Part shown: one piece after another, positions 13,603 through 55,470 of the stretch
How the letters are laid out: each line of letters starts with the position of its first letter
How positions within the stretch are numbered: the first letter of the stretch is position 1
DNA from: Chiloscyllium plagiosum
Taxonomy: Eukaryota
NCBI RefSeq assembly: GCF_004010195.1
Contig: NC_057751.1
Location: forward strand, 10,057,457 to 10,121,456
Direction of reading: 5' to 3'
DNA length: 64,000 bases
The notes under the pieces: generated by a model
Databases searched by the model: none
What the model saw: the letters and a program-made list of their open reading frames with translations, nothing else
What the model was told of the DNA's origin: nothing
Program-made: the position numbers and the translations under genes

Positions 13603-13846
13603 CACTGCAACTCCCAGGTCATTTCCTCTGCCCTGAAGCTCTTACTCTATGCTACTCTCTCCCCACCCCCACCCTCCCCGAGCTTATCTCTCCATGCTTC
13701 AGGCTCTCTGCCTTTATTCCTGATGAAGGGCTTTTGCCCGAAATGTCGATTTTGCTGAAGCTCCTCGATGCTGCCTGAACTGCTGTGCTCTTCTAGCACC
13801 ATTGATCCAGAATCTGGTTTCCAGCATTTGCAGTCATTGTTTTTAC
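13603..13846 (+). mobile_element. PLE 3' terminal (pLTR) insertion
   Basis: Same family as the 54.8 kb and 55.3 kb elements; 11-bp TSD cttcagattac (13592-13602, 13847-13857). Confidence 0.85.
13720..13747 (+). ncRNA. Minimal type I hammerhead ribozyme core (PLE-associated)
   Basis: CTGATGA-a-GGGC-tttt-GCCC-GAAA-TGTC; core intact, stem III palindrome ACGT changed to ATGT (CpG decay). Confidence 0.75.
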
Positions 13847-16800
13847 CTTCAGATTACTGATGCTGTCCTGTACCTGTGCTACATTGCACTGGCTGTTTTG
13901 AGGCCTTCATATAGATTCCTCTATGTGCCCTTTAAACCTAACCCCCTGAGTTTGTTGAGAGGAAATGGCAAATATCATTCATGCCATTATGCAGTATGAG
14001 CTCCACAGAGAAAATGGGCAACAGAGGAATTTGATATTGTTGAGAATGTTGAGGGTAACAGTTTGTTCTCGCCTTATAACCTTTCTGAACTCCCAGCTCA
14101 CTGTTATCCTGCTCCCAGTAATGTGCAAGCTGCCGATAGTGTCACCATGTTCGTCTTGCTTTCCACGACACCCTTTTTCCTTTACTTGAAGCACCACCTT
14201 TGTCAGCCAGCTCGATCGCAGCAGACCCATGAGGAGAAGAAAGAACAGCAGATCACTGTTGAAGAACCTCTGTCACCTGATCTGTCACAGCTTGTAGTTC
14301 AGTTACTAGTGGTACTTGAACGTGCAGTGTAGAAATGGGATCTGTATGAGTGAACTGCAACCACATAGCAGATGTTCTTCACAATCACCTGACTGCAAGT
14401 TTGGTGCCTGACTCTTTAAATGGTGTTCATGTTGGGTCCCTTTGTCGCTGAACATACTCTTTGGTGAATGAGAGTGAATTCACAGAATGGGTCTGCATCA
14501 TTCAACTTGGAAGATAGTATGGATCAAATAGGTTTGGAACTGTGTAGACGACTGTAATGCTTTCATCAGTTCAACAACTTCCAAGCTACCCTGGAGATGG
14601 CTGCACCAATATGCTTCTCAAATGGGGCATTGCTATGCAATCAGCTGCAGGCTCACTGCATAGCAGCAGAAGGGTGTTCTGTAGTGTCTGTCATGTCATC
14701 TTCAGCAGTCTTATCGGATCTAATTTTGTGTCCAGATAGTATTCTGCATGAGATGTGAAATGACAGCTCCTTTCAATTGAATGTGAAAGATTTTGTGATA
14801 CAATTCAAGGAGGGTCAGGGGAATTTTTCCCTGTGTCAAAGCCAACATTCATCTCTCTTTACGAAAACAGATTAATTCATAACTTATTGTCCCTTTCTTT
14901 CATATGAGACAATACTGTTTCCAATGCTGAACTCCATACGGCAGCAACTGTAATTCATAAATTAATTATTATAAACAAGCTCGGATGACCTGAAGACCTG
15001 AAGGAAATTTTTCGAAGCCATATATTAGAGAGCAAGAACGTTCTGTTATTTCTGAATTATTCTTCTTGACATATTGATTTGTTGCCAGAGGACCTTGAAA
15101 GAGAGTTTACAACTAAAACATATCACTGCCAGTATTTTCAGTGAATTAGCTTATATTGAAGTTTGGCAGAATTTGAAGTTGGAAACAGCATTGGCCATAC
15201 TGCTGTATTGCAAGAAAGGCATTCAACTGAGCAGTGTTGATACTGGCACTGTACCAAGCTACATGTGTAAAGAAAACAAAAGAAATAAGATTGTTGAAAC
15301 TTTGAACAAATAGAATACTGTATATGTTGTTTGAAAGAATTGTGTCAGAGTTGCATACTGGCAACATTTGAGCTCAAATGCCAAGATGATGGCATTCCTG
15401 ATTGGCATTCAGTTTTATTTTGAGATTATTTTGAAGTTGTTCCTTACCTTTCTAAGGCTCCATATGGTGGAATCACTGATTACAGTATAGCGTGGAAAAT
15501 CTTTCAAAACCCTTGCAACAATTTACACAGAATGTTCTCGAGTTGGCAGTGATATGTTTTCAATGACAATGGGCTGCAATCACAAACAAACAGCAGACTT
15601 TGGAATGTTGCCTTTGAAGCAAGATAGTTTTGGCAATCTTGCTCCAAAGCAGATCACCAAATCCCATTACTTTTGAGGGCCTGAATTTTAATAGGCCCCC
15701 TCAACATTCCTGGAAGATAAGTTAGTTCCAAACTGACTGACTTTAAAGAAGGCTATCTTGCATTAATAACACACTCTGGGTGGCCAAAAAAGGCTGAAAT
15801 TCAAACTTCTGCACCTCAGCAAAATAACATTTTGTCCTTAATTTAATTTGCTGGTAGCTGTTGCAGTCAAAGCAGTACCAAAACACAGTCATGGGTGTTG
15901 ATGGAACTGACAGCAGTCTCATAAAGAAAGAAAGCAACGAATCCTGAACCCAGATATGTTCTGGGCATTTGGGATGGTGGTGGGACGAAGTTTGGTGTTG
16001 GGAGCAGGCCTTGCAGTTCAGATGGAAGCACAAACATCTTGAAAGGTGCTTCTCTTGTTCCGAGCATACCCTGAAATTATGTAGCTCCTTCTTTTCTGCC
16101 TTTTCACCAAACTTGTTCAAATCAAAGGCCTTCACAATCTCACCGACCTTCCGCTCACCAGTGTACATATTTTTAATCAACTTGTTCAGAGATGTTATGA
16201 TAAACTTCCAGAACAAATGGGATTTAAACCCAGATCTTGTAGCTTACAAGTAGAGTCATGACCACTGCACCATGTGAGCCCATTCCTCACTGTGTTATGA
16301 AACTGGAAGTGGCCTGAGGGCTTGAATTGAGCAATAATCAGCCACTTATGGGCCCAGTAGGCATAAAGAGCAGTGGATAATGGGTGCCTTACCCACACCC
16401 TCAACCCCATATTAAGTGGCTGGGTTGAAGGCAGATTGGAAGTTAATGGACTGGCCAATGAACATATTTTATGTCTCTTCTTGCTGAAAACACACTGATT
16501 GAGAGATTGTAAATTTCAGCTCCAGAGTATAGTCATAGAATCATGAGTCATAGAGATGTACAGCATGGAAACAGACCTTTGGTCCAACATGTCCATGCCA
16601 ACCAGATAACCCAACCCAATCTATAGTCATTTTAATTAACCTATTTCAGACATACTGTGTCACACCTCCAGCTCAGGTGGATTTGAACTGGATCTTCTTT
16701 GCAGAAGCACATTCTGGCAGCTCCCAAGTGTGTGAATATAGTGTTCTCAAATCTCATTCTGCACAACATAAGTGATTCTGGAAATTACATTCCAAATTCT

Positions 16801-17559
16801 CCAGATTTGATTCTGAGACCATTTCTCAAAAATATCAGGAATCAAATGGATGGAGATTGTATTGCCACAATCTAGCTGTTAAAGAAGCCAAGGGAAGTTG
16901 GAATGAAGTGCACATTAGCTCAGACAAGACAAGTCTGTTTGGACAGGGATTTGAATGGCTTTATACAGATCTAATAGAGGATACATTGCATTAGTTCAAA
17001 ACATATGGATCAATTCCACAATTTCCACCACTTATTACAATTTGATAAATCTATAGCAGTGTGAGTTCTATGTAGCTGAGACAGTAATCTTGGAAATGTT
17101 GTGAAGGAGAAAAATGTCTGTGTGTTTCAGTATATATCTCTTAGCACAGGCTTTGCAGCAAGTCAGCAGTGTATTTTGATATCAATTAGTGCAATAGATC
17201 ATGTCTGAACATTTTTAGGCAACTTATTACATACCTGGAGCAGAGGGCTACATGTATGAAGAAGTTCTTTCATCAGCCTAGTGTTAGAATTTGTTAACAT
17301 GGAATTTCCTGCACAGCATGCCCAGACTGAGAGAGTAAATCTGAAGCACGCAGCGGCAGATATGGGCAAGAAGTAATGGAGACAAACACACCAGAGAAGA
17401 ACAAGTTGAAGGAGAGAATGAAGAAAAATGAAAGCAAGGAGATGAGCAAAAGCAGCAAATTACTTCGCTGTTCAGCTATTTGTTGCCATCATATGAATCC
17501 TGATATTTCTTACCTTTTCACTGACAGTACCAAGGCAATGGAGTACATATTAAGTGTTA

Positions 17560-18420
17560 GGGAGTGCACAGAATTAGAGGGACTGAGGTATGCATGTCCA
17601 TAGATTCTTGAAAGTAGAAGGATAGGTTAAGAAGGCATATGGGAATTTGCCTTTATTCATCAAGACATTGAGTATAATAGCAAGAAGGTAATAATACATA
17701 AAAACTGAAAGAACTGCAGTTGCTGTAAATCAGAAACAAAAACATAAATTGCTAGAAAAGCTCAGCAGGTCTGGCAGCATCTGTGGAGAGAAATCAGAGT
17801 TTATGTTTTAGATCGAGTGACCCTTCCCTGCCAGATGAGTTAAACTTTACCAGCAATTTCTATTTTTGAAGGTTATGATGTATGTATAATTATAGATAGG
17901 ACAAAGCTGAACTACTGTGGGCAGTTCTGGTTACCACACTAATGGAAGGATGTAATTGCATGTGAGAAGATGCAGAGTGGATTCAAGAGAGACTAGGAAC
18001 TGTTTTTCTTCGAGCAGACAGGGCTGAGGAGCATTTGATTGAGGTGTTCAAAGTTCTGGGGGTGTCGACTAGATAGACAGGGGCCACTTCTCCCCTCAGT
18101 AGAGAGGTCAGTTACCAGGCCCACAATCTTAAAGGAAGCAACAGGAGGTTTAGAGGGGATTTGAATAAAATTGCTTCTCACCCAGAAGGTGGTGGGTATC
18201 CAGAAATCAAAGCCTAAAAGGGTGACAGAGGCTGGAATCCTCAAGAGATTTAAGAAATATTTAAGGCGAACACTTGAAATGCCATGGCATATGAGGCTAT
18301 GGGACATATGCTGGAAATTGGGGTGAGTGTAGATAAATGTTTGATGACCCAATGGGCCGAAGGGTCTCTTTCCTTGTTGTGGAAACTCTGTGATCTCTCT
18401 GACTGTATGACTAATGTCAT
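17560..18420 (+). mobile_element. Highly decayed CR1 3' portion with a PLE tail inserted at ~17700-17870
   Basis: gttaagaaggcatatggg, gcagttctggttaccacac, gggccgaagggtctctt tail. Confidence 0.65.
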
Positions 18421-20219
18421 TATGATAGTTTTTTTCCACAACAAGAAACTACTTTATTTTCACATTCTTCCAGCTTGATTGGAATTGTCCTGTATTTTCC
18501 AATATTGTAACCATTAATGATAACTTGTAAGTTTTCAGTGAGTGGAGACGAGTTTGCTTTTTCTCACCACTGTTGCAAATCTTTTCTCACAGTGCTCAGT
18601 GCTGACAGGCTGATGGGACAGGTCATACTAATGTGGCATCCTCTCATGCACCACACGCTGTATGGGAGGATGTTGTGTGGTCTCTGAATTCCATTTACTC
18701 AGTACTAACCATTTTGGAAGGAATTTATGAGTGTGGAATTAGCTGAATCAGTGTGGCTTCTGAAATTTCTGTGGAAACTTGGCTGATCCCTTTCCCTTCC
18801 GGGATGCTGCATAAATTAATAAATGGAAAAGCAGCCAGAATGAACAATGGTTTAGTGGGGACTGGTTTGAGTCGTTACCTGGATGATGATTTAGATGATG
18901 AGCTACCATTTTTGGTCTGTCCATTCCTCTCTTCACCAGGTCATGTCCTAACTTAAGCCTCAGAACTAAGATTCTTGAGTCTTGACAAGCAAAGAACCTC
19001 TCTGATTCATGGGGTACTACCATAGAGCCAATGGTCATTCAGCTTGGACAAGTTTCTTGCTGGATGTCAACCCAGGAATTAGGGACTGTGATGTCAAACA
19101 CCATTAGTTTATGTTGATTGACTCGACTGAAATGTACCAAAATGTACTTAATTAACTGAATTCACAAGTTAATTCCACTGTAACTGGATTTTCTATGAAT
19201 TTTTACACCGATTTTTAATATCCCCGTTTTGATGATTTCATGTCTTTTACATGCATATTTTGTATGGTAGTTGCAAGGTATGTGGAACTGGAGGAAAGAA
19301 TGACTCAAATCTACATGATCAAGCTGTGCATAATAATTTTTTTTATTTCAGGCTATTAACTCTGAAACCATTGAAGGTTGGTGATGTTTGTTTCTTTTTA
19401 GTGGATGAGTAAAATGCTCAGGAAAATTTGTTTTCAGATTATTGGAAGAAAGCTCCTGTTTCTGGACAAAATAAAAGTTATATTTGTGATCAGATAGGGA
19501 GAGGAGTCATACAGGGAATGAAAGAGCCAGTAAGGAGAGCTCAAGGAGAGATGGGAAGGGAGTGGGTCAGTGGCAGCAAATAGGACAAGCTGCAGGCACT
19601 CAACATTGTTACATTACACAGGTGCATACCCATACTGGCACCAGCAAAGCAATGTGAACCATATTGTGTTTCCAGCATCTTTGAATCAGGAATGACATTA
19701 TTAAAACCATTCATGCTGATATCAGGCACCTTCAACAAAACTGACCATATCCACGGATTGAATTCATCAGCTTGGAAAGTGTCTGCTAATTTGCAGCCCT
19801 TTGAGGAAACTTAAAATTGTTTTCTATTAGCTGCAGTGGCGGTATTAGGCATCTTTTGAGTTATTAGAAAACATTTAATTTACTGATAAATTTACTTATA
19901 TACACCAATTAAACAAGTCAATTGCTCTGTTTACTTTCGTTGGAATCATTTTGAATTATTTAAAGTTAACAGGAAGAGAGGGTTGAATTTTTAAAAAATG
20001 TTTAAATAATATAAACATAATATTAGCTGGTAAAAATTACAAGATTACCATTTTTTAATACAATTTATTGTCACAGGTGGTAATGAATATCTCGGTTCTA
20101 AAATATTGTCTGATTGAAGTGATATGCATGTGCAATGAAACCAAGTTTGGAGCCGACTATTTTGAAGGCTCACTGCACGGACCCACAAGGCCTCCTTGTT
20201 CTAGTTTGATAGAGGAAAA

Positions 20220-20370
20220 TAAAACTAAAAGAACTGCCATTGCTGGAAACCAGAAACAAAAACAGAAATTGGTGGAAAAGCTCAGCAGGTCTTGCAGCTT
20301 CTGTGGAGAGAAATTCGTTAACATTTTGGGTCCAATAACCCTTCCTCAGAACAGAATCACTTTCTGTTTT
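20220..20370 (-). mobile_element. PLE tail fragment with degenerate hammerhead
   Basis: Minus strand reads gtt-CTGAGGA-agggttattggaccc-AAAA-TGTT-aac. Confidence 0.6.
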
Positions 20371-20455
20371 TGGTCATATCGTATTGAACAATAAGTAAGT
20401 TTACAGCTAGTTACAGTTTACAGTGATACGATCAATTCTAAAATAAAATCTGTGA

Positions 20456-22134
20456 TTGCAATCTTTGAGAAGATTTCTAGCTCAGGTTGAGGTTCTGGTT
20501 GCAAGTTTGCTCGCTGAGCTGGAAGGTTTGTTTTCAGACGGTTCGTCACCATGCTAGGTTACATCATCAGTGAGCCTCTGGTTGGGCGCTAGTATTATGT
20601 CTTGCTTTCTATTTAGGTGTCTCGGTTTCTTCAGGTGGGTGATATCATTTCCAGTTCTTTTTCTCAGAGGATGGCAGATGGAGTCCAAATTGATGTGTTT
20701 ATTGATGGCGTTCTGGTTAGAATGCCAGGCCTCGAGAAATTCCCATGCATGTCTCTGTTTAGCTTATCCTACGATGGATATGTTGTCCCATTCAAAGTGG
20801 TGACCTTCATCTGTAAGTAATGATACTAGTGATAGTGGGCTATGTCTTTTGGTGGCTCCTGGATGTTCATGTGTTCTGGTGGCTAGTTTTCTGCCTGTTT
20901 GTCTGATGTAGTGTTTGTTACAGTCCTTGCACGGTATTTTGTAAATGGTATTTGTTTTGCTGGATGTTTGTATAGGGTCCTTGAGGTTCATTAGCCACTG
21001 TTTAATGTGTTTGTAGGTTTGTGAGCTACCATGATGCCAAGGGGGTCTGAGTAGTTTGGGAGTCATTTCAGAGATGTCTTTGATGTAAGGTAATGTGGCG
21101 AGTGTTTCTGGGTGCATTATGTCTGGTTGTTTGGGTTTGTTGTTGAGAAATTGGCAGACTGTGTTTATTGGGTACCCATTCTTCCTGGATACGTTGTATA
21201 GGTATTTTTCTTCTGCCGCTCATAGTTCCTGGGTGCTCCAATGTGTTGTGGCTCATTGAAGTAATGTCCTGATGCAGCTGTGTTTGTGGGTATTGGGATG
21301 CTTGCTTCTGTAGTTAAGTATTTGGTCTGGGTGTGTTGTTTTCCTATTGTCACTGGTTTGCAGTTCTCCATAAACTGTTTCTTCTACTGTGGCATCGAGG
21401 AATTGGAGTCTGTTGTCGTTCTCCTCTTTTGTGAATTTTATGCCAGTAAGGAAGAACAGGTACCCAAAAGATCAGTCTGCCGATTTCTCAACAACAAACC
21501 CAAATAAGCAGACACAATGTGCCCAGAAATCCTAGCCACATTACCTTACATCAAAGACATCTCTGAAATGACTTCCAAACTACTCAGATCTCTTGGTATC
21601 ATGATAGCCACAAACCTACCAACAAATTTAAACAGCGGCTAATGAACCTAAAGGACCCTTTACAAACAACCAGCAAAACGAATGTCATTTACAAAATACC
21701 CTGAAAGGACTGTAACAAACATTACATTGGACAAACAGGCAGAAAACTAGCCACCAGGATACTTGAACATCAACTAGCCATCAAGAACATGACCCACTAT
21801 TACATACAGATGAAGAAGGACACCACTTTGACTGGGACACCACATCCATTGTAGGATAAGCTAAACAGATATATGCAAGGGAATTCCTAGAGATGTGGCA
21901 TTCTAACCGGATTTCCATCAATAAACACTTCAATTTGGACCCCATCTACCATCCACTGAGAAAAAGAACCAAAAATGATATCACCCCGCCCCCCCCCCGA
22001 AGAAAACAAGACATCTAAATAGAAAGAGGGACCTAATACCAGTGCTTCACTGGAGGCTCACTGATGATGTTACCTAGTATGGTGACGAACTGTCTGAAAA
22101 CAAACCTTCCAGCTCAGCAGGCAAACTTATAACC
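20456..22134. mobile_element. Penelope-like element with GIY-YIG endonuclease in inverted arrangement (minus arm 20456-21447, plus arm 21448-22134)
   Basis: LPYIKDISE..IYKIPCKDCNKHYI(G/R)QTGRKLATR.HEH on both arms; TSD ataa(a/t)atctgtga at 20443-20455 and 22135-22147. Confidence 0.9.
22061..22094 (+). ncRNA. Hammerhead-like core of a second PLE family (mirror copy at 20537-20570, minus strand)
   Basis: tca-CTGATGA-t-GTTACC-tagtat-GGTGAC-GAAC-TGTC-tga; A15.1 is C in both copies, so probably inactive. Confidence 0.6.
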
Positions 22135-25100
22135 ATAATATCTGTGAGGAGGACCTAGACATTATAAGTTAGTTAGGTCTGGCAGAATTGTTTGAAACCA
22201 CATTGAGCTCAGGAATGGGTGATGCGTATTAGTCAATTCGGTGACACTTGAGAGAACATTAGCTATTATTGGAATATTATTTCTAGTTATTTGGAATATG
22301 GCTCTTGTGGTAACGTGATGGTGTGAAAACTCTTTACAGTTTGATGGTTTGAGTTCAAATCCCACCTATCCCAACATGTATTGTTACATGTTTGAACAAT
22401 TGCTTTAAAAAACATGTAAACCATTATGTTGGTTGTCCGTAAGTTTGTAACTGTGACCAGTGCTGGACTATATCTCAACAAGAGCAATATTAACATTGGA
22501 TGCTTAGCCTTACTTCTCCGAGATCTAAAACCGTTGTCCTCCAAAGAACATATGACATCAACATTAGAGGTCATGTTGAAAACACTTTTCAGAATTAATC
22601 CTTTCAGACACGTTCCATCTTTATACAATTGGTGTGTGGAGGAGCTTATAGTTAACTTTGAGTGATAATTTGCAGACAGATTGTTTATTCCGGTTTTAAG
22701 TGGAGTTGAAACCCTTTACTTTGTGACTCCTGTGGTAATGCTGCCATTATGAAAGGCCTGAGAATAGCCTGACGTTTGGAACCTGGGTAGACATTCAGCT
22801 CAGACTTAGGGATGAAACTTGCCTGTGTTTGCTAGATTTAACACTGGTGCAAATCTAGATTGCAGTTCCAAAACAAGTCTTGAGTAGACTTATTCATTGT
22901 AAAGAGCATGAGAATTTGTTCACAATTATTCCATGATACTACTATTGTCATTCGTGATTATGTGATGAAGATTGTGTAACTTTGGTGATTTTTACTAAAT
23001 CTTGTTTGAATGGACAAACAGATGCTCTTGTTTTCTCAATAATTCTCATATGGTTGATTGACAGAAATCAAATATGTTTTGTTTATTTTGGAAAATAAAA
23101 TTAGCATGAATAACTTGACATTCCAGATGGTAAAGTGACACACATTTTCCATAAAATAGCACCTGACAATGTTGTGCTTAATCTCATGCCTTCCAGAAGT
23201 TTTAAAAATCATAAACCAATTAAAAACAACTTCGACTTTTATTTTTGTGTGAGGAATATTACCAGAAGGTAATAAATTTCAACAAACCAGCCATTGCTAT
23301 TGATTCTGCAGTGAACTCCAGTTTGTGGAATTCCATTCAGAGCCAAGAATCTGAGTGCTGAGTAAAACTGAAGGCATTCAGACAGCCAGAGGGAGGGGAT
23401 AATAATAAGAATGATCAGACTGCAAGATCAAGTTTTGAAAAGACCAGAGCTTTTCGGCTGTATTGAAACTGCTCTTTTGAATTCATTGGGTAGTTTAATT
23501 TTATCAAATGCAAATGAAAATGAATTCTCTTTAAAACTTGCGGAAAATTGTGGTTTTAATACATTTTCACCTTTTCCATGTCAGTTGACCAGGGATAATA
23601 CCTTGTCCCTTTTCACAGGTCAAAATGGCAGTTTATTTTGACAAGCAAAATTGAACCTTGCCATTCTTCACTGACATGCAGACCAGGTGTTGAAGGGATT
23701 CTCTTCCTCACTGGTTGCTAGTGAAATAGGATTCAGATTTCTCTTCTATTGATATAGACACAAATTCCTCTGTGCCAGAAAGGGTGTATCAAGCCAAATT
23801 CTGTTGCAGAACCTGTGGAACTTCACAGCCCTCTCACTTCTGAACAGAATTTGATAGATGAATTGTCATTTGGTAAGCGACCCTTCATTGACTTCTGACT
23901 TGCAAAATCTCTGGGGAAAAGAAATGATCAGATCTTTTTTCTGGACATGAATCATTATGCTGAACAGATTCTTGGAAACTTGAGGAAGTTCATCACAAAA
24001 TACCATCCAAACTTCTTTACATGGAATATGTCGGCAGAGAAAGCTGTGGGAACTATTGAAAAATGTCCAATTTTCAGAAATTCACGAAGTGCCACCTGCA
24101 AATGAACATAATTTCAACAGGTGGCCTGATTTTGTGCATGGTTAGTACAATGCATGAATATCTTAGACATCTCAAGGCAGCCTCACCTCTACTTAAAGGG
24201 GAACTGCTGCAAATCCCTCTCAAAGACTTGGCTGGAAGGTAAGACACAGGACTTGAAGGAACGGGCAAGACAGAAGGATCCCAGGTTTTCTGATATGGCC
24301 ATTGGTGATAGAGGTGGAAAGAAGGACAGATGACCTCAGTAGGAACAGTATTAGGGGACAGTGCAGTGGAATCATGACAGTGTAAGAGATGCATTGAGCA
24401 ACAACTGGCATCCATAATACTCAGCTGTTAAATTCAGTTGTGAGTCAAAGAATGCTTTGTTGTAAATAGGCTCACTATATCATACTGCTCAAAGTATTTA
24501 CATGAAGGTAATTCTCACTGAATGTTGTGACTTTTAGGGCACTTTTGTCTCATTCAGTTGTCATTGTGCTTTTTTTGATCTTTTGAACGCTAAATCCAGA
24601 TTGCCAATGATGATGCAAAACTGACATCAAAAATTATATTTTTGTTCCAAAGAAGACTCACATTCAAAGTATTAACTGTTGCTCTCTGCTCAAATATTGC
24701 CAGTGAAATAACTCCACAGTGGTCCATCATCAAGGCACATTTAATTTATTTGTGGAGAGTCCTTGACATTGATCCAACTTCCTCAGAGCCAGCTCTCAGA
24801 GTGAAAAGAACCCCTGAAACTCCTGTTGTATCCGTTAGCCAGGACCAGATTAACAGCATCGATCAGGGAACTCAGATTCCATGAGGTCAACCTGCCTGAC
24901 CTCATTACAATCGCTACAGCCACGCCTGCTGAGTTTCTCCAGCACTTTCTGTTTTTATTTCGAGTCTCCAGCATCTGCAGTACTTTGCATTTATAAGTTT
25001 ATATTCCTGGAGGTTTGCAGTAATGAGCTAGAGACGTGAGTTTCAGAAATTTAAATTCAATTAATGAATTAACCTGAAATAAAATTAAACTGTCATCGCA

Positions 25101-25374: not shown

Positions 25375-25705
25375 AAATTACAACACAGAATCAGGCCCTT
25401 TGGCCCTTCAAGCTTGCGCTGATTCAGATCCTCTATTTAAACCTGTCATCTATTTTCTAAGGGTCTGTATCTCTCTGCTCCCTGCCCGTTCATGTATCTG
25501 TCTAGATACATCTTAACTGACACTATCATACCCACCTCTACTGGCAACGCATTCTGACACCCACCACACTCTGCATAAAGAACTTTCCATGCATATCTCT
25601 CCAAAACTGTTCCCCGCCTACTTTGAACTCGTGATCCCAGTAACTGAGTCCTCCACTCTGGGAAAAAGCTTCTTGTTATCCACCCTGTCTATACCTGTCA
25701 TGATT
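25375..25705 (-). mobile_element. CR1 3' end fragment
   Basis: CR1 3'UTR plus gaatgcgttgccag and dataqmtgidrvdnkklfp-like coding text (IMTGIDRVDNKKLFP). Confidence 0.7.
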
Positions 25706-25711
25706 TTGTTG

Positions 25712-26982
25712 AATGAGGTCGGAGCAGAGGGTGGAGCGGCTAGGTGGGAAGGAAGATGGACAGGGAGGACAGTTCAAGAGGGTGATGTCAAGTTGGACGT
25801 GGGATAAGGTGGGAGGAGGGGAGAAGAGTGAACTTGTGAAATCGACATTGATCCCATGTGGTTGGAGTGTCCAAAGGCAGAAAATGAGGCATTCTTCCTC
25901 CGGGTGTTGCGTGGCTAGAATTTGCCGGTGGAGGAGGCCGAGGACTTGCATGTCCTTGGTGGAGTGGGAGGGGGAGTTGAAGTGTTCAGCCACAGGGCAG
26001 TGGGGTTGTTTCATGCGTGTATCCCAGAGATGTTCTCTGAAACATTCCGCAGGTTGCTGTCCTGTCTCCCTGGAGACCACATCGAGAGCAATTGACTCAA
26101 TAGATGACGTGTGCAGGAAAATCTCTGTTGGATGTGGAAAGATCCTTTGGGTCCTTGGTTGGAGGTGAGGGGGGAGGTGTGGGTGCAGGTTTTACACCTC
26201 TTGCAGTGGCAAGGGAAGGTGTCGGGGTTGGTGGGAGGCATGTACCTAACAAGAGAGTCATGGAGGGAATAGTCTCCATGGAACGCAGATAAGGGTGGGG
26301 AGGGAAATATATCTCTGGTGGTTGGTTCTGTTTGTAGGTGGCGGAAATGTCCGAAGACGATGTATTATGAATTTGGAGGTTGGTCGGGTGGAAGGTGAGA
26401 ACCAGAGGGGTTCTGTCCTTGTTGCATATGGAGGGATTCGGTTCAAATGCGGAGGTGCAGGACTAAACATGCACTAAACAACCCCACTGACCTGTGGTCG
26501 AACACTTCAACTCCACTTCTGTCAAGGACATGCAAGTTCTGGGCCTATTCCATCGTCAAATTTTAGCCGCCCGACGTCTGGAGGAAGAACGCCTCGTCTT
26601 CGGTCTTGGGACTCTCCAGCCACATGTCGATTTCACCAGTTTCGTCATCTTCCCTCCCCAACCTGATCTCAGATCCAACCTTTTAACTTGGCACTGCCCT
26701 CTTGAACTGTCCTACCTATCTTCCTTCCCACCTAACCAGTCCACCCTCCACCCTCCCTATCACCTTCAACCCCACCTTCATCTGTCTATTGCATTCCCAG
26801 CTACCTCCCCCACCCCCCTTCCCATTTATCTCTCAGCCCTCCTAGGCCTCCCCACATTTGTGATGAAGAGCCTATGCTCAAAACGTCCACTCTCCTGCAC
26901 CTTGGATGCTGCCTGAGAGGATTTGCTTTTCCAGCACCACATTTTTTGACTCTGATCTCCAACATCTGCACACTTTCTCCTA
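25712..26982. mobile_element. Penelope-like element, inverted arrangement (minus 25712-26461, plus 26462-26982)
   Basis: GIY-YIG tail PVAEHFNSPSHSTKDMQVLGLLH..EEERLVFGLGTLQP on both strands; degenerate hammerhead at 26860-26887. Confidence 0.9.
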
Positions 26983-37863: not shown

Positions 37864-37874
37864 GGGGTCAAAAG

Positions 37875-41090: not shown

Positions 41091-41101
41091 TCCTCTCTTA
41101 A

Positions 41102-41330
41102 GGGGAAATTGGGTACTGCAGATGCTGGAGGTTCGAGTCAAGATTAGAGTCATGCTGGAAAAGCACAGCAGGTCAGGCAGCATCCGAGGAGCAGAAAAAT
41201 CGACATTTTGGCCAAAAGCCCTTCATCAGGAATCCTGATGAAGAGCTTTTGCCCAAAACATAGATTTTCCTGCTCCTCAGATGCTGCCTGACCTGCTGTG
41301 CTTTTCCAGCATGATTCTAATCTTGATTCT
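41102..41330. mobile_element. PLE fold-back palindrome
   Basis: Arms converge at cttcatcagg-aat-cctgatgaag; TSD tctcttaa (41094-41101, 41331-41338); both hammerheads lack G12. Confidence 0.85.
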
Positions 41331-41339
41331 TCTCTTAAT

Positions 41340-43560: not shown

Positions 43561-44377
43561 AGGATAGGCAATCTGTTTGGTCAAGCTGCCTTGCTAGACC
43601 TAAACTTATACTTTTCAAATACTTACTGTAACTTTGATTAACTTCACTCTTGGTTTCTTAAATAATACATGGAGATAAGGAGAAAGTGGAAATTCCTCAC
43701 CCCTGCTCACAAATCAATTCCTTCTTCTGTGCCGAGAAATTCTTTCTTTCCCTGTGCTCATTCAGAAATTTATATTTAAGTTTGTGAAGTTCAAACACAG
43801 TCCCTTACAGTCGTTGCTCAACAACCAATCAACTGACTACTTTCCTGTGATGCCATCCTTAGACTTTGTTTTGTTTTCCTCACACTATTTTATTTGGTGC
43901 CCACACATCCCCTTTCCTCGCATTTTCGGGGCTGCTGACTTTCTCCACATCCTCCGCCATTCTGCTGCAACCTTATCTGGATTTTCTTTATGTAGCCAAG
44001 AGACTCTGGCATCAATTGAGACAGCACAAACCAGGAACTGAACCTCAACTCTAGATGACTCAACTGCAAAACGCCTTCATTCTGCAGTTTTCCAAAATCA
44101 ACAGATAAATGGAAGGTTGTGTAAGTCCCACTAAATAACAGTAAATCAGTTGTGTTTCTGTAACACACCCTTGACTAGTTTGGTCCAGAAACACTCTTGC
44201 GCAGTATGTGGCCAGTTAACAACTGGGAACCTTATTTGTCGGAATGCAGTTGTGAAGGTTTTCTTAATGGGGGAATATGTGCAAGTATTATTTCTTGTAT
44301 GTGTCAGAAATCCATGAGAATGCTCATTCCCATATTCTCACCAGCTGATGTACTAACAATGGTAATTAAAGCAAATA

Positions 44378-44510
44378 TTCTGAAGAAGGGTCACTGGACC
44401 CAAAACGTTAACTGTGATTTCTCTCAACGGATGCTTCCAGACCTGTTGAGATTTCCAGCAATTTCTGTTTTTGTTTCTGACTTCCAGCATCTGCAGTTCT
44501 TTTGTTCTTT
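44378..44510 (+). mobile_element. PLE tail with hammerhead-like core (fourth family)
   Basis: att-CTGAAGA-a-GGGTC-actg-GACCC-AAAA-CGTT-aac; G12 changed to A at a CpG. Confidence 0.7.
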
Positions 44511-45124
44511 TTTTGTTAAGCAAATGTCTTGTTTAAAATTGAAACATTTTCTGTTTTTAATTAACATAGTTCTGTACTTGAATGAAAACCACATGAGACT
44601 TTTTTTGTAATTGTTTTGCCTTCCTGTATATGAGCTCATGCCAGATCGAGAAACATATGTTGTTTGTAACTTTTGTACATTTTTCAAACAATTGGCTGAA
44701 GTGAACATCTAGCTCAAGCAAGGCTTTACATCAAAAGGTTTTAATTTGTAACTTATTTTCTTTAATAAAAAAAACTGGATTTGATTCCAGTTTAGAACAG
44801 AAATAGAATGATAGCAGTATTGCAAATAAAATCACTTAACACTGTTCCACTTCTCCAATTTAAATGAAGACATATATATCAAACTTCAGGAGAAAATTAG
44901 CTTTTTTATTCACAGTCATTAATTGGAAATATTAGGTTTGGAATCAAGTAGTACATTGATTCAAACAATGCCATTACTCCTCAAGAATCTTGCACTGGAT
45001 TTAATGGCTAATACTCCATTATATCAACCCTTCACAACTGAAATCAGTGGCTCAAACTGACTATATTCTCTGCACATGTCTTTGGAGAAACCTATTTACA
45101 GGTACCTGAGCAAGTTCCCAGCTC

Positions 45125-45139: not shown

Positions 45140-45265
45140 TGAACATATTAATTAGGAGCAGGAATAAGCCATTTGGCCCTTTGAGCCTGCTCCGCTATTT
45201 CATAACATCATGGCTGATCTGACTCTAACTTCACCTTCAGCCTACCTCCAATAACCTGTCATCCT

Positions 45266-45584
45266 GGATGTAAGTTTGCTTGCTGAGCTGAAAGGTTCAT
45301 TTTCAGACCTTTCATCATCATACTAGGTAACTTCATCAGTGAGCCTCTGGTGAAGCGCTAATGATGTCATTTTTAGCAACACATCACCACAGGAAATGAC
45401 ATCACCAACCCAAGGAAGACATAAACACATAAATAGAAAGCGGGTCACTAAAACCAGCGCTTCACCGGAGCTCACTTATGATGTTAACTAGTGACAAAAC
45501 GTCTGAAAAGGTACCTTGCCATTCAGCGAGCAAACTTACATCCAGAACCTCAACCTGAGCTACAAATCTTCTCAAAACTCGCTA
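45266..45584. mobile_element. Short fold-back of the 20.5-kb PLE family, inserted in a minus-strand CR1 3'UTR (45140-45640)
   Basis: Inverted arms ggatgtaagtttgc / gcaaacttacatcc; degenerate TSD taacctgtcatcc / taagctgtcttcc. Confidence 0.8.
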
Positions 45585-45745
45585 AGCTGTCTTCCTTTTG
45601 CTGACCAAAAGTTTATCCCCCTCTGTCTTAAGAATGCAGAGAAAATTCTTCAAGGGATTGAATAAAAAAATTAATGAGAAAGATTTTACTTCCTTGGCAT
45701 TCACAAGAGGTTCCACAGGATGAATTTAAGAATCTTTCCTAATTT

Positions 45746-45937
45746 GGAGGTGCCGGTTTTGGACTGGGGTGTACAAGGTTAAAAATCACACAACACCAGA
45801 TTATAGTTCAACAGGTTTATATGGAAACACTAGCTTTTGGAACACTGCTCCTTTACCTGGTGAACGAGCAGCATTCCGAAAGCTCGTGCTTCCAAATAAA
45901 TCTGTTGGACTTTAACCTGATGCTGTGTGATTTTTAA
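45746..45937. mobile_element. Fold-back palindrome of a third PLE-like family
   Basis: gttaaaaatcacacaacacc / gtgtgatttttaac arms; TSD ctttcctaattt (45734-45745, 45938-45949). Confidence 0.8.
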
Positions 45938-47759
45938 CTTTCCTAATTTATTTTTTATGCATCAGTAAATTCCTGTTCTCTTAGTGAAACAGACCAAAGA
46001 ACGGGCCAACAGACATCAAAATGGACATAACCAACAAAGACTATCTGGAAGACATTGGCAAAAAGTCTTAATAAAAAATATATTGGGATGTTTTCAGTGA
46101 CTGTAAATCCCCTGTGCATAAAAACTCTTTCATTACAGAAATGATTACCTCTAACTTGCATGATTAATGCTGCTCAAGACCCACCAGTGAGAGGTTAAGA
46201 GAACAATTTTCCACATGGACAACACAGTAGAAGTAGAAGAATTTTAACAAATTCAGAATAACCAGAACATATTATAGGTCTGATAATATGAGACATTGGG
46301 GGCTGTTGTGGGCAAAGGTGAATGATTCATTGTATGAATCCCAAGGTGGGAATTTTGATTCTTTGTCCAGCTCACAGATTCCACATTCTGATTCACAGTT
46401 GTGACATCATTGGTTTGACCTTCCCCAATTTCTCCAGATGCTGGTGCCTTTCTCAACAGCACCACTCTGTTCCACGAATCTATCCTCATTGCTGCTGGGT
46501 CCTAGACCCCTACATGATATTGTCACTTGTTACCAAACTGCCACAGTTCTTATGCAAGTTAGAACTATCCCAAATTCTGATTCAATTAAACCCCTATTCC
46601 TCTTTCCAACTGAACCTCCATTAATTCCTACCATCTTGTTATGACAGCCAAGAACCCGTGCTTCAACACTCATAAACCCTACACTGAGCTCTTACTGAAC
46701 TTCTGTTGATGTTGCTACTTTTAGTATTATTTAACACAATAGTGCCTAATCTAAGGAATTTCTACCTCCTCTGCTTTTATCATTCTGCAGAAATATCCAT
46801 CACTGTTATCACAGTCTAACATCTCTGTCATGGTGCCAGACCCAAGGAACTATGTGTGAAAATAGCTGGGGTACAAATGGGGATTAAAATATTATGTATC
46901 AGTGTCTTTTGATTCACTGTTCACAGAAAAATGGCATAGAATTCCTAGAAAATCATGTGTTAAAATGAAAGTTATTGCAAATGAAGTGGTCTGATAACAC
47001 ATTTGTCCATTATGTAGAAATCATTCTTTCTTGGTACAAACAACATATTCTTTTTGAGCATTGCCAACGATATCCTGTAATTGTAATTCTAAAACAGTGG
47101 ATCCAACACAAGTTATCTATCCCACTTCCTCTCCCTGTCTTACACTCTCTCACTGAGATAATGCAACATAGATATAATCAGATGTACACAGCGAATTGAC
47201 TTATGGTAAAATTTGCATCAATTTAGATTTCCTCTAATTAGCTGTCTGGTGCGTAAAATTCTCAGTTGTAATTTGCCTGTTCGCAAATTTCTTCACAAGG
47301 AGGGGTGAAATAAATTATTTAAAATACTTTCTGAAAATGTTTAGATCCACTATTTTTCCACTCAGCTTCCTAACTACACATGGATTTAAACTCAATTCTA
47401 ATTCAAGTATGGATAAAGTCAACCTGAGTATTGTAAGATTTCAATCTTTTGTTAGAAATGCAGCATGTAAATGTGAAATCTAAGATCTATAAGTTATCCT
47501 GAGGTATTGAATTTAGCACAACCCCGAATGGTGCAGACCAGTTTTTGCTCCCAGTGCTTTATTCTTGGCCCAAACTGACTTGCAACAACTTGCACAGATA
47601 CAGCATATTCTATGTACTTTCGTCTTCATCATGTCCATAGTTCTTCTCTTCAACATGACTTTCCTTGGGCCATGTCTGTTTGTGTTAAGTTTTCAGCACC
47701 ACACATTACACTTCACAGGTATCGTTTGGGTTCTGCAAACAGCTTATGTACTTCACCAA

Positions 47760-47910
47760 AAAAATGAAAGAACTGCAGATGCTGGGAATCTGAAACAAAA
47801 GCAGAAATTGCAATTCTGAAGAAGGGTCAGTGGCTCTGAAAGGTTAACTCTGATTTCTTTCCACAATGCTGCCAGACCTGCTAAGCTTTTCCAGCAATTT
47901 CTGTTTTTTG
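47760..47910. mobile_element. PLE fold-back fragment (fourth family)
   Basis: cagaaattgc / gcaatttctg arms; CTGAAGA..GAAA core at 47816-47845. Confidence 0.7.
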
Positions 47911-48773
47911 GTATGTTCTTGGCCTATTTTTTAAGATTAATGGTGAGATCCTGGAAAATGTGGATGGCATTTAATCTGTTGGGAGCTTCCTCCCCAGAAA
48001 GCCGGACATGGACAATGATACTCATCATTGTTTCCAATGTGCTACCTCAGCCTTTGGGTGTGTGAGGAAGAGTATTTTTGAATCAGGCTCTCAAACTTGA
48101 CATGGAGGTCATGGTTTACAAGACAAACAGTGAACTCTGTACTTTTTTTAATATTGCAAACTCAGACAACAGCGAGCACTTTGACAAACATGTATTATCA
48201 AAGGTGCCTCAGCAAAATTCTCCAGGTCTGATAGTAAGAAAGCCAGTCTCTGAAGCCTGAATGCCTCGTCGCAAGTTGTGTTTCAGCAGTTCCACTTCAC
48301 TTGGTGGTGGCAGGAGGCTCCCAGGAGGACAATGAAAGTGTTCTTGAAGCATCTTTCAAGAGATGGAACATTCATGCTATCTGTGATCTATCAACACAAA
48401 AGAAGTTGTTCAGGGAGGCACCAAAGAAAAGGAGCAACTATGGCGAAACATGCTGCTGTGAAGTAAGGATTGTGTAGAGGTAACAGTTCCTCATGAATCT
48501 GCTCCTTCAAGTGCTGTGTGTGTTTACATGTTACAGGATGCAGAACAATAATAGCCCTTTCAGAAACCATTGAACTTGTCCTTGATCCCAGGGAATGCTT
48601 CAAAATAAAAGTGATATCTATTCTTATATGTGCACCAAACATGTTAAATCCCACGTGTGGTGTTTTATTACAGATACAAAACAAATTAAAAATGATGAAT
48701 GTTTCTGAATTGCAGTCTGACAAGCATAATTCAAGCCACAAAGTTAAATGTCATGTGTATGACTTTAGACTGT

Positions 48774-48988
48774 CATGATTTGGAGGTGCCAGTGTTGGAC
48801 TTGGGTGTATAAAGTTAAAAATCACACATCAGGGTATAGTCCAACAGGGTTATTTGGAAGCACGAGCTTTCGGAGCGCTGCTCCTTCATCAATGGTTGTC
48901 CACTTGATGAAGGAGCAGCAATCTGAAAGCTAGTGTTTCCAAATAAACCTGTTGGACTAAAACCTGGTGTTGTGTGATTTTTAACTTA
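48774..48988. mobile_element. Fold-back palindrome of the third PLE-like family
   Basis: TTGATGA-a-GGAGC-agc-GCTCC-GAAAGCTC on minus, with a degenerate mirror on plus; TSD agactgt (48767-48773, 48989-48995). Confidence 0.8.
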
Positions 48989-49029
48989 AGACTGTGTGCT
49001 CTTTACCATATTGCAGAATACAGGTAAAC

Positions 49030-49230: not shown

Positions 49231-49744
49231 GTTTTAATGTAATAGGTTACACTGTTACTGTGTGCATTTAAATGGCTGCCAGAATTAATGAGTCCAAAGA
49301 AGGAATAAAGAGAATAGTTGTTGAATAAAACCGCATTTAAAAATGTTCTAGCAAAAACTCTCAAAAGTTTTCTCAATGAATTCATCATCAACGGTCGAAA
49401 TGAAAAAAAACAGGAAATGCCGGAAATACTCAGCCGGTCAGACAGCATTTGTGGAAATTTAGATAAAAGTTAACGCTTCAGGCCAACTAGCTTTGCTCAG
49501 AAACTTGAGTATTGTTTGAGTTTGGGTGAGAAGATGGGATTAGAACAGGAAGAGTTAAAATGCAACCCACAGCCTCGAGTGACTATTTGAGATCGTTAAA
49601 ATAACAAGTCTGCTTTTCATTTCATTGTACATGGGAATAATTCTAAATGACGGAAATATATACATGACTGTTTGCCAAACTCTGACGGGAAAATAATGAA
49701 ATATGATTGTTTGCAGTCCTATCCCTGAGTCATAATTTATACAT

Positions 49745-50393: not shown

Positions 50394-51467
50394 GTAAGAG
50401 ACAGGGCCACTCTGGAGGGGTTAGTGACAACAGCAGTGTTACTTCCATTGGAACCAATGGGACCAAATGGGTTGTAAAATGCTCAGATTGAGCATTATCA
50501 TTCTGGCATGTTGGGTGACCGATAGGAATGGTATCAGGCTAATGAAAGACCATTGGCAAAGTAAGGAGCAATGAGATTTAATGTAAATGAGAAGGTGGGC
50601 TTACCTGTCACCATACAGTATTATCCTCTCAAAGATCTCGAGGTAAATATCTTGAATTTGATTTTTTTATTGGCAGTTCTCAATTCCTTTACTGTTCCTC
50701 AACACCACTGATGTATGTGAACAATTTCTGGCTTATGTTGGTTGAAAAGAGGAAATTGACCAAAATGAATTTTCTCAGAGCAGCTGTTGTCTATCTTATT
50801 TTGTTGCTGCTGTAATTTGCTGGACTTTTCCCATGAATTCCGTGCAGGATGTAAACAAGGCATTAGTCTTCATTGTCAGGAAGCTACTGGAATGTATTTG
50901 TTGGGCAGAAAGCACAAAGTTGTCACGCTGAAGTCTGCAAACTCACTCCTCCCTGCTTTTGCCTTGGGATTGGCTGATGATGATTTCCCATTTCTTTCAG
51001 TATGGATTTTCCTGTTGGAAGTGCACTGGAACAAGAGTGACAGTGTAATAGGAGCAATGACAGTGACTATTATTGTGACATTATTTTTTGACAGTGTAGT
51101 GGTGGTAGATATTTGTTAAACAACCTGTTCAGACATGATGTGACAAAATCCCCCATCCCCACCACAGCAGCTGGTCTTGGCCCACAGGTGGTGATGCTCT
51201 CACTGCATCGCGAAGTCCAGTCTCAGAACTCAGACATGGTGATCTTGGCATAATCACAGTGCTAACAGCTCCATTGAAGTCACAAAGATAAAAGTAGAAA
51301 AAGAACAGTGCAATAGAATTAGGGTAAAATTCAATGTCACAATAACATGGACTTGATTCATGAAATATTCAGCTGGGAAGGAATCTTGTTAGGAATGTGT
51401 CAAAATCCCAGAGCATTTGCTGCAGAAGAAGATTTGCATCAGATACCAAGTTTAGATACATGCCATA

Positions 51468-52008
51468 AAAATGTGTTGCTGGAAAAGCGCAGCAGATCAG
51501 ACAGCGTCAAAGGAGCAGGAGAATCAACGTTTCGGGCATAAGCCCTTCTTCAGGAATGAGGAGGGTGTGCCAAGCTGGCTAAGATAAAAGATAGGGAGGA
51601 GGAACTCGGGGGAGGGGCATTGGGAATACGATAGGTGGAAGGAGGCTAAGGTGAGGCTTTTCTTAGTCCCAACCCTCAGACTCAGCACCGCCTTCTTGAC
51701 CTGCAATCTTCTCTGACCTGCTGCGCTTTTCCAGCAACACATTTTTAAGCTCTGATCTCCAGCATCTGCAGTCCTCACTTTCTCCTAGATACATGCCATA
51801 TCTGCCACACTTTGCAAAAAGGCCTCACCTTAGCCTCCTTCCACCTATCGTATTCCCAACGCCCCTCCCCCGAGTCCCTCCTCCCTATCTTTTATCTTAG
51901 CCAGCTTGGCACACCCTCCTCATTCCTGAAGAAGGGCTTATGCCCGAAACGTTGATTCTCCTGCTCCTTTGATGCTGTCTGATCTGCTGCGCTGTTCCAG
52001 CAACACAC
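51468..52008. mobile_element. PLE fold-back insertion (51468-51785) plus a displaced mirror arm (51822-52008)
   Basis: 15-bp TSD tagatacatgccata (51453-51467, 51786-51800); 51822-52008 is the reverse complement of ~51471-51657. Confidence 0.85.
51926..51953 (+). ncRNA. Minimal type I hammerhead core (mirror copy at 51526-51553, minus strand)
   Basis: attc-CTGAAGA-a-GGGC-ttat-GCCC-GAAA-CGTT-gatt; core intact, GUU cleavage triplet. Confidence 0.75.
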
Positions 52009-52559
52009 TTTTTTCCAGTACTCCATTTTCAGTTGTTTCAATTCCCAATGATGACTTGTTTCCCAAAACAGGAATTTGGTCCTCACTTACTCTTACTTAC
52101 CCTCCTCTGAACTTGTAGCACTCTATTAGATCCAACTGTAACATTCTAAACCAATCTGTATCTTTCAGAGGCCATCTCTGTGACAGTTCCACCAATCTCT
52201 CATTGAACTATAGCTTCAACAAATCATAGCGCATTAATGTTGTTGAACATCCCAAGGCATTTCCGAGGGAGTTATAAAACAAAGTATGAAATTGAATTAA
52301 GCAGGGAGATATTTGGACAGATGACCAAAGATGCAAGTATTTGAGAATGGCATGAAGGAAGAATATGAGGTAGAAAGGCAATGTGGTATGTAGAGTGTAT
52401 GCCAGAGCATTGGGCCGAGGCTATTGAAGTGGAATAAATACAATTGGAGATACACAAGGCCAGAATGAGAGGAGAACAGAGACCTCTTGACAACAGATCA
52501 TGAACTCCTAGTTTCAAAGAGTGTCATTGATATTGTCTTTGTAAATGTTCTTTCTCTAT

Positions 52560-53470: not shown

Positions 53471-53769
53471 GGACTTGAATGTGATGAGAGTGTTTCCGGA
53501 GGTGTCAGGCAGTGAATATAGAAGGTCTCTTAATTGCGTGCTGGACCCATTGACTATCTACAAATTGGCTTATGATTCCAGAATAAAGGACAAAAACATT
53601 TGGAAAGGACTATGTAATTGCAAATATCCAGTCTTTGAGAGTGTTCTGATGAATTCTTTACATTAACCATTCCCCTGTCTTTTTTCCTTCAAGATAATAA
53701 TGGAAACACTAATGTATGCTTTGATTTTGGTTCACATTCCAGTTTTATTTGAGCAGCAAAGGAAAGATT

Positions 53770-54180: not shown

Positions 54181-54818
54181 GACTCTGATGACTGTTGGAA
54201 AATTCAAACCTATCCTCAATGTTCAGAATGACAAAAATTCTGATTTCACTGTCCACGACCCCTCCCTCCCAACCTATGGAGAGTATGGAAGTCCTTGAGC
54301 AAAGCATCTGTTTGTCCAGAAAAGCATACTTGATATTTGTCCCATCATTGAGGTCTTTTACTCAAAAGCTACAGAATATCTATTTCCTGTTGAGCGATTA
54401 CATGTCTGGCTGTTGTTGTAAATAAAGGGCCATTGTCAATGAAAAGGTGTTCAATAGACTTAAGCCATGTCTTCTGCTTCTGAGAGTACACTCACTCCTC
54501 GTTATTCACTGATTTGTTACCTGTGAATTTGCAAACTTCTGCGGTCTGCCCCACCCCAATTTTGTTACACATTGATTCTTCCAGTCTGATCACAAGGACC
54601 TTCATGGTACATCGAGGAGCTACATGGGTTCAGGATCCATGGTTTTTGCATTCTGTAGATAATCTGCGCCCCTATCCCCCACTGCTAATAAGGATTTAGT
54701 GTTATCACATTGGCTGACCCCTGCTGGGAGGTTTGCATGGATCTTCTGTAAGAGCAAGACCTATCTTTTCTGCATTATTTTCTGCTCACACTTTGTAGCT
54801 GTGCTCTCGTATTGAATA

Positions 54819-55049
54819 CTGGATCAGTGGTGCTGGAAGAGCACAGCAATTCAGGCAGCATCTGAAAACCTTCGAAATCGACATTTCGGGCAAAAGCCCT
54901 TCATCAGGAATATGATGAAGGGCTTTTGCCCGAAACGTCGATTTCGAAGCTCCTCGGATGCTGCCTGAATTGCTGTGCTCTTCCAGCACCACTGATCCAG
55001 AATCTGGTTTCCAGCATCTGCAGTCATTGTTTTTACCTCGTTGTTTTTA
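54819..55049. mobile_element. Young PLE fold-back palindrome
   Basis: ~90-bp near-perfect arms; 14-bp TSD tctcgtattgaata (54805-54818, 55050-55063); hammerhead core at 54880-54907 on minus. Confidence 0.9.
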
Positions 55050-55247
55050 TCTCGTATTGAATAACCATTTGACTGAAATACCCACACTGAGAGTAGCACT
55101 CATGTCACTCTACCCCAAGAATGTATCTGAGTCCACTGGAACAAAAGACAGCAAATAGGTGAGGAACGGGAATAATTTTGTGAGTTCATCCTTTTTTGCT
55201 GAGGTACACTGAGCAGAGGAAGCAAGGGTGGGTTAAAAAGATTTGTT

Positions 55248-55470
55248 CTAGATCAGTGGTGCTGGAAGAGCACAGCAATTCAGGCAGCATCCGACGAGCA
55301 GCAAAATCGATGTTTCGGGCAAAAGCCCTTCATCATTTATTCCTGATGAAGGGCTTTTGCCCGAAACGTCGATTTTGCTGCTCGTCGGATGCTGCCTGAA
55401 TTGCTGTGCTCTTCCAGCACCACTGATCCAGAATCTGGTTTCCAGCATCTGCAGTCATTGTTTTTACCTC
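55248..55470. mobile_element. Young PLE fold-back palindrome
   Basis: ~88-bp near-perfect arms; 14-bp TSD taaaaagatttgtt (55234-55247, 55471-55484). Confidence 0.9.
55343..55370 (+). ncRNA. Canonical minimal type I hammerhead ribozyme core
   Basis: attc-CTGATGA-a-GGGC-tttt-GCCC-GAAA-CGTC-gatt: all core nucleotides present, ACGU stem III palindrome, GUC cleavage site. Confidence 0.8.

Follow-up and report, generated by a model that had tools for sequence, protein, structure and literature searches.

Minimal type I hammerhead ribozymes are known from the Penelope-like elements of metazoans (Cervera and de la Pena 2014, PMC4209133), where, in the published account, such motifs have low activity and act as dimers only. 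In Anolis, cleavage in the Poseidon element PAc was found to be assisted by protein and dispensable for insertion in vitro (Frangieh et al. 2024, PMC11167929), and among Xenopus dimers one of nine cleaved (bioRxiv 10.64898/2026.07.22.740005). The same preprint reports tandem hammerhead repeats in one chondrichthyan genome, and the role of the Penelope hammerhead is still treated as open (PMC8557442, PMC11167929). Here we analyzed a stretch of 64,000 nucleotides (nt) from the shark Chiloscyllium plagiosum (NC_057751.1, positions 10,057,457 to 10,121,456; hereafter the window), in which a preliminary description had reported hammerhead cores of four retroelement families, A to D. It is highly probable, in our assessment, that these motifs are minimal type I hammerheads lying in the pseudo-long terminal repeats (pLTRs) of 5'-truncated, often inverted Penelope-like insertions that belong to several families.

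The frame C3UGANGA9-N-stem II-GAAA-NN-UH, or a form of it decayed by one or two letters, was present at all 12 positions where a core had been described. A strict descriptor that required the two core boxes, UH and base pairs in stem II (4 bp) and stem I (2 bp) matched six times in the window, against a mean of 0.007 (maximum 1) in 300 dinucleotide shuffles, and eight times against a mean of 0.013 when G12A was allowed; the strict count excludes chance. The described motifs are thus real, with two corrections. The minus-strand copies had been given by their N17 end, their C3 positions being 54907, 20570, 45339, 48892 and 20349, and the list was incomplete, as the window contains ten or more additional arms besides other decayed relatives. 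We scored 22 arms (10 of family A and 4 each of B, C and D), leaving outside this count a deleted copy at 40325, a pair without hammerhead (11052-11184) and the relatives at 5575-5660, 42826-42951, 49403-49513 and 24892-24998. The majority letter was correct at every core position across the 22 arms. An intact core was found in three, all of family A (55343 and 51926 on the plus strand, 51553 on the minus strand), and in none of the scored arms of B, C or D; two further arms lacked C3 alone, which was lost at the inversion junction, and in family C the C3 was present in one arm only. All four families have an unpaired base between positions 9 and 10.1 and a G10.1-C11.1 pair (G10.1 is kept in 21 of 22 arms and C11.1 in 18). 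The helix III palindrome is ACGU in A and D and AGCU in C, while in B ACGU occurs in one of four arms, and N17 is U in three of the four family D copies.

In these features the window resembles the metazoan motifs described in PMC4209133, which have the same core boxes, the extra base between A9 and G10.1, the G10.1-C11.1 pair, palindromic positions 15.2-16.2 and a short helix I. As here, a genome contains many families of them, most copies are single and truncated, and dual motifs lie on opposite strands. They differ in that helix II is 4-6 bp here and 7-8 bp in the Schistosoma motifs, and in that opposite-strand pairs lie 0-11 nt apart here and about 100-700 nt apart there. Judged by sequence, the motifs carry the features that define metazoan Penelope minimal hammerheads, whereas neither an Rfam match nor the tandem arrangement of retrozymes was found.

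The evidence that these motifs belong to Penelope-like elements comes from the neighboring coding fragments and from the structure of the insertions. An open reading frame (ORF) of family B (20764-21216, minus) was 62-68% identical to its three best matches, uncharacterized proteins of Stegostoma and Chiloscyllium, and the ORF at 25676-26188 (minus) matched one Chiloscyllium protein, which makes a carpet-shark host likely. In Pfam the matched proteins hit RVT_1 and, weakly, GIY-YIG. When they were searched against the window with tblastn, the matches at 21450-20458 (minus) and 21385-22134 (plus) reached into the family B hammerheads, and those at 25853-26616 and 39126-40073 led into family A hammerheads; the family A fragments match P0007. 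The results suggest that an ORF with reverse transcriptase (RT) plus GIY-YIG as its C-terminal domain lies 5' of the pLTR in families A and B. A Pfam scan of 13 ORF fragments of the window found no GIY-YIG on the seven Penelope-type fragments, and its RVT_1 matches were set aside, as they belong to other long interspersed nuclear element (LINE) fragments. A CX4CxxC linker precedes the endonuclease in family A (26050-26300, minus); a CX2-5CxxC linker at this place is given as a mark of Neptune (PMC8557442), and family A is putatively assigned to the Neptune clade by this motif alone. Family B has no zinc-finger linker, and an ATG at A9 opens a frame through its stem II; its tentative clade name, Penelope/Poseidon, likewise goes by motif. 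Family C is provisionally filed as Penelope-like by its structure. Flanking target-site duplications, 9-16 letters long and differing in no more than one letter, were found at 13 of the 14 insertions examined, and in all seven inverted pairs with both ends measured (families A, B and C) one arm extends 20-38 nt further 3' than the other.

Published accounts of endonuclease-positive Penelope units (PMC3846280; PMC8557442) describe the same plan: a copy that is 5'-truncated and adjoined by an inverted one, a palindrome where the two meet head-to-head, a one-sided tail (30-40 bp in the described units) and a duplication (about 8-10 bp). Unlike them, the unit in the window is often only about 200 bp, with its junction at the 5' edge of the hammerhead, and the available portions of the two papers contain no statement of a hot spot at this edge. 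Family B resembles the Anolis element PAc in having an ATG at the start of stem II, a predicted cut 28 nt after this ATG (PAc: 26 nt), a pair of 3' ends separated by about 30 nt, and no RNA reads ending at the cut site (PMC11167929). The 3' ends of family B lie about 70 and 101 nt after the ATG, compared with 111-118 for the main PAc start, and unlike PAc, which is known from in vitro work, the family B copies are broken and are known here from sequence.

The preliminary description had four families whose helices differ completely, which overstated their independence. Families B and C are distinct, as nhmmer found no cross-hits between either and any other family, but A and D are sisters, homologous over the motif plus about 60-100 nt downstream (cross-hits at E 3e-10 to 5e-15). 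The 820 nt upstream of the copy at 13720 did not match the upstream regions of other family A copies, and family A therefore comprises two or more subfamilies that differ in their upstream sequence. The four decayed relatives of A and D, at 5575-5660 (minus; an inverted pair joined within stem II), 42826-42951 (plus), 49403-49513 (minus) and 24892-24998 (plus), have another stem II and downstream sequence and make up at least a fifth and a sixth subfamily.

Compensatory stems, which had also been described, are seen between the sisters: the first pair of stem I and the fourth pair of stem II are both C-G in A and U-A in D. In the stem I comparison 95.6% of cells were paired, a value reached by 3 of 500 shuffles in a comparison that does not control for relatedness. 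Covariation inside a family, by which the ribozymes were to be judged, is the wrong place to look; copies decay after insertion, and the signal lies between families. A search of metagenome contigs with the core pattern gave 117 loci and 92 distinct matches with flanks, one of which was a weak profile match to the families of the window. In this set of 92, the fourth pair of stem II was paired in 74% (35% in shuffles), and pairs 1-4 of stem I in 50, 66, 66 and 46% (33, 35, 38 and 26% in shuffles), with none of 2000 shuffles as high in each case; pairs 5-6 of stem I showed no excess. Since about half of the 92 matches are one family, this pairing is support and not a p-value. The summed depth of DNA contigs is highest over the core, at 6.5 M, and drops to 1.1-2.3 M on the flanks, as is expected if the core is common to more subfamilies than the flanks are. 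Taken together, the motif is likely kept by selection in active source elements. As a separate observation, 21 of the 92 matches have a G after ACGU, and within these L007, L009, L012, L017, L021, L040, L047, L049, L059 and others show a longer helix III variant, ACGUGU, which is self-complementary with wobble pairs and is followed by A and a CUC/GAG stem I.

Several results weigh against reading the motifs as Penelope-type hammerheads. An Rfam scan of the window returned no hammerhead family among its 11 matches at E<=10, so the check with the Rfam model that had been proposed fails here; the motifs are too reduced for the curated models and escape them, while profiles built from the window alignments found additional copies. 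The Rfam matches that fell on palindromes were rejected as chance matches to microRNA hairpins. The GIY-YIG scores of the matched proteins lie under the curated Pfam cut-off, families C and D have no ORF link within the window (D being homologous to A), and 1 of the 14 insertions lacks a convincing duplication (7 letters). Stem I of family A has just two contiguous pairs, and helix III consists of four self-complementary bases worth -1.7 kcal/mol alone. The hammerhead was the minimum-energy fold in none of ten monomers; in the plus-strand copy at 55343 the lowest-energy fold, at -11.4 kcal/mol against -7.2 kcal/mol for the hammerhead, has the CUGAUG box paired to the helix III region. The scored arms and the metagenome matches are related among themselves, and p-values from them therefore overstate. 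Finally, the 1099 reads of RNA run X21 on the 13720 copy, which are in both orientations, neither start nor end at the cut site in any excess, a test that is weak with a fragmented polyA library. About 90 of these reads have a set of private differences in common, such as A15.1>C in one orientation and a variant of the tail in the other, which suggests that one or two host transcripts containing a family A copy are highly expressed.

Given the weak helix III and a hammerhead that is not the lowest-energy fold, cleavage would need a second copy or a protein. The preliminary description pointed to dimer action of such motifs in Penelope-like elements; the copies of the window are unlikely to work in this way, because the close pairs are head-to-head, and a transcript would comprise one sense and one antisense arm. 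These pairs were predicted to fold as hairpins of -95 to -186 kcal/mol with 71-87% of bases paired. Near-perfect palindromes of about 200 bp lie at 41115-41329, 54816-55039, 55246-55470, 45745-45941 and 48771-48987; if transcribed, they would give double-stranded RNA of 80-100 bp.

We also analyzed how the copies decay. The letters at CpG sites (11.1, 12, 15.2 and 16.2) were changed in 22 of 80 cells, compared with 9 of 241 other core cells, and 20 of the 22 changes were transitions; G12>A alone was found in 8 of the 22 arms. DNA contigs mapped onto the 13720 copy (reference 13570-13880, used for both reads and contigs) gave, as shares of summed depth, 13% C11.1>T and 12% G12>A in run X1, and 17% and 16% in run X9. 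Among the changes listed, none fell in the core boxes outside CpG sites, except A15.1>C in the RNA reads. G12 is the general base of the hammerhead, and C11.1 is conserved before it. Decay is concentrated at CpG because the C11.1-G12 step, a conserved one, forms a CpG; the ACGU palindrome contains another, so that the general base and helix III would be the first parts lost to methylation. These data bear out the earlier suggestion that copies were often inactivated at CpGs. That most genomic copies are inactivated holds in the window, where 19 of 22 arms are damaged, but is not supported by the depth-weighted contigs, which keep G12 in 84-88%. The arms of one insertion share private changes (20570 minus and 22061 plus, 41229 and 41235, 51553 and 51926, 55336 and 55343; arm identity 0.91-0.99), including core damage: A15.1>C in both arms of the family B pair 20570/22061 and G12>A in both arms at 41229/41235. 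Either damaged templates were copied or the arms convert each other.

Where the copies start bears on whether cut RNA was the template. If it were, truncated copies should start at N17+1, and only the pair at 11052-11184 comes close to this. Nine of the 15 hammerhead-bearing insertions instead start within a few bases of the 5' edge of the motif; in five of eight head-to-head pairs the C3 positions of the two arms are at most 11 nt apart, and each of the four family D copies starts close to C3, between about 9 nt before it and 4 nt after it. Contigs leave the 13720 reference at the same place: in X1 at least 755 do so at 4 nt and at least 249 at 3 nt before C3, together about a fifth of the 4709 that fit partly, and in X9 at least 745 of 4743 at 4 nt before C3. 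Beyond these break points the sequence is long (255 letters at the median), AT-rich and dissimilar (agreement 0.31-0.33). Of 41 arms in the largest metagenome family, 19 stop or turn into an inverted copy 7-28 nt before C3, one does so at 38, and 21 continue past 60, after 5 of 46 arms were dropped for short flanks, in a set that was chosen for an intact core and includes two loci twice. Against this lead, a sister subfamily also diverges from the reference at this point, the consensus of the loose ends closing with that subfamily's last four letters, and the summed depth just upstream of the motif is as high as that on the tail, so that many copies extend further upstream.

That copies end before the motif and not at the cut site argues for uncut RNA as the template in vivo. 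It is possible, and we propose it tentatively, that in Penelope elements with a hammerhead this structure, folded and uncut, determines how far the copied RNA extends at its 5' side. The template would begin at, or be trimmed to, the foot of stem I, which would act either as a structure that protein covers and that halts decay from the 5' side, or as a start site; cDNA running off this end would fold back and give the 200-bp palindromes. In that case the motif would serve less as a cutter than as a boundary and a handle for the element's protein, and the 130-nt piece from hammerhead to tail would be the smallest mobile unit, both in sharks and in eukaryotes unrelated to them. Simpler causes of the 5'-edge starts remain, namely endonuclease cuts at the ATT/T-rich run before the motif (an ATT preference is reported in PMC11167929), fold-back at local palindromes, for which self-priming has been proposed in Penelope elements (PMC3846280), and polymerase slippage.

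The insertions suggest the following course of events. Source elements would carry the motif in the pLTR at the start of the ORF, and their hammerhead would cut element RNA only with help, from a second copy or from the element's protein. Reverse transcription would have two alternative starts, about 45-105 nt 3' of the cut site, one yielding copies with a tail and the other copies without; it would run through the uncut hammerhead and often stop near its 5' edge. The second, inverted arm would be made in the same insertion event, and the genomic copies would decay afterwards, mainly at CpG sites.

Other explanations of these motifs have to be weighed against this reading. The motif might be conserved as a protein-binding, promoter or translation-start element that no longer cleaves in these families, which we think unlikely. 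The ATG at A9 in family B and the U at N17 in most family D copies would fit such a role, as would the Anolis results, in which cleavage was not needed for insertion in vitro and no reads ended at the cut site (PMC11167929), and the damage common to both arms of one B and one A insertion suggests that damaged templates may have been copied. But all catalytic letters, not a subset, are common to the four families, the Anolis motif cleaves with protein and shows C3/G8 rescue (PMC11167929), and the shared changes could equally stem from CpG recurrence or arm-to-arm conversion. Somewhat less probable still is that the short copies are self-propagating non-autonomous elements of about 130 nt (non-LTR retrozymes, or similar to short interspersed nuclear elements), processed by dimeric hammerheads and mobilized by the Penelope enzyme. 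Non-LTR retrozymes also have a type I hammerhead from Penelope pLTRs, and their tandems are reported in one chondrichthyan (bioRxiv 10.64898/2026.07.22.740005). In each of two DNA runs, six contigs contain a head-to-tail joint that connects the end of the tail (13847) back to a point 4 nt before C3 (13716), which makes a 132-nt unit, so that tandems of the retrozyme type do occur in low number; in addition, all four family D copies start at the motif edge. However, these six are among more than 32,000 aligned contigs, the copies of the window are dispersed or inverted, unlike the tandem units of retrozymes, with no same-strand tandem, a unit released by cleavage would start at N17+1 and not before C3, and the three family A palindromes differ from one another in both junction and duplication.

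The three intact cores, and the family A sequence in RNA reads of both orientations, could also be taken to mean that closely spaced copies are working dimeric ribozymes with a host function. This is very improbable, since the close pairs are on opposite strands and predicted to form long hairpins, and the damage to most arms follows a neutral CpG spectrum. Chance matches in repeat-rich DNA, for which the lack of an Rfam hammerhead match might be cited, have a negligible probability: the shuffles refute them, and three unrelated sequence lineages place the same frame at the same position of the element.

The best hammerhead of the window (family A, 55340-55373, plus; core intact, C3 at 55343, N17 at 55370, helix III palindrome ACGU) lies in a head-to-head insertion at 55234-55484 with a 14-bp target-site duplication and the tail on the plus arm; its opposite arm (55306-55335, minus) lost C3 at the junction and has G16.2>A. 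A second head-to-head insertion at 54804-55063, with a 13-bp duplication, has C3 at 54907 (minus) with C15.2>U and a plus arm without C3. The complex inverted insertion at 51452-52012 carries the intact cores 51553 (minus) and 51926 (plus), N17 being U, and about 90-100 nt of upstream element sequence on either arm. At 41089-41338 the C3 positions of a further head-to-head insertion are 41229 (minus) and 41235 (plus), with the G12>A of both arms. The solo insertion at 13590-13857 (plus) comprises about 115 nt of upstream sequence, the hammerhead (C3 at 13720, C15.2>U), a tail and a duplication. Coding fragments of family A are found at 25716-26985, where the end of the ORF (GIY-YIG, CX4CxxC linker) forms inverted arms with a decayed hammerhead at 26860 (plus), and at 39126-40408 (plus), where an RT-thumb/GIY-YIG fragment is followed by the hammerhead with a 9-nt deletion (about 40325). 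The pair without hammerhead (11052-11184) lies in an inverted family A insertion at 11034-11197 with a duplication, its plus arm starting at about the predicted cut site.

Family B forms an inverted insertion at 20443-22147, with ORF fragments at 21450-20650 (minus) and 21385-21982 (plus) and hammerheads at 20570 (minus, with tail) and 22061 (plus, no tail), both with A15.1>C, and a short inverted insertion at 45256-45596 (C3 at 45339 minus and 45475 plus). The two family C insertions are head-to-head, one at 48762-48995 with C3 positions 48892 (minus, with tail) and 48904 (plus) and the palindrome AGCU, the other at 45732-45949 with its arms joined within the CUGA box. Family D is represented by a solo insertion at 44367-44525 (plus) that starts 3 nt before C3 (44380) and has G12>A and a duplication; by an inverted tail piece at 47745-47920 joined to a copy that starts 3 nt before C3 (47816); by a minus-strand copy at 20216-20372 (C3 at 20349, G12>A) with a short inverted piece; and by a decayed minus-strand copy at 17696-17868 that starts within the CUGA box and also has an inverted piece. 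Elsewhere in the window, decayed LINE-type fragments with matches to apurinic/apyrimidinic endonuclease or RVT_1, several of them repeated or inverted, lie at 7222-9837, 28354-30843, 33664-35521, 56510-57915 and 60915-61415, and a run of 760 N (30846-31605) separates two of them.

A literature search, most subscription journals and Repbase aside, found no account of shark families, of CpG decay of hammerheads or of a truncation hot spot, and two of the three supplementary files of PMC4209133 contain no shark term. The class itself is already published, and the window adds a host lineage and several families, though the preprint cited above and the supplements of PMC4209133 may already list shark families. 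Since its invariant C11.1-G12 step and its ACGU palindrome are CpGs, the hammerhead is its own mutation hot spot in a methylated genome, and searches with strict motifs will give too low a count of copies in vertebrates. Copies are numerous enough in shark genomes for 5' ends to be mapped to the single base, which bears on the role of the Penelope hammerhead.

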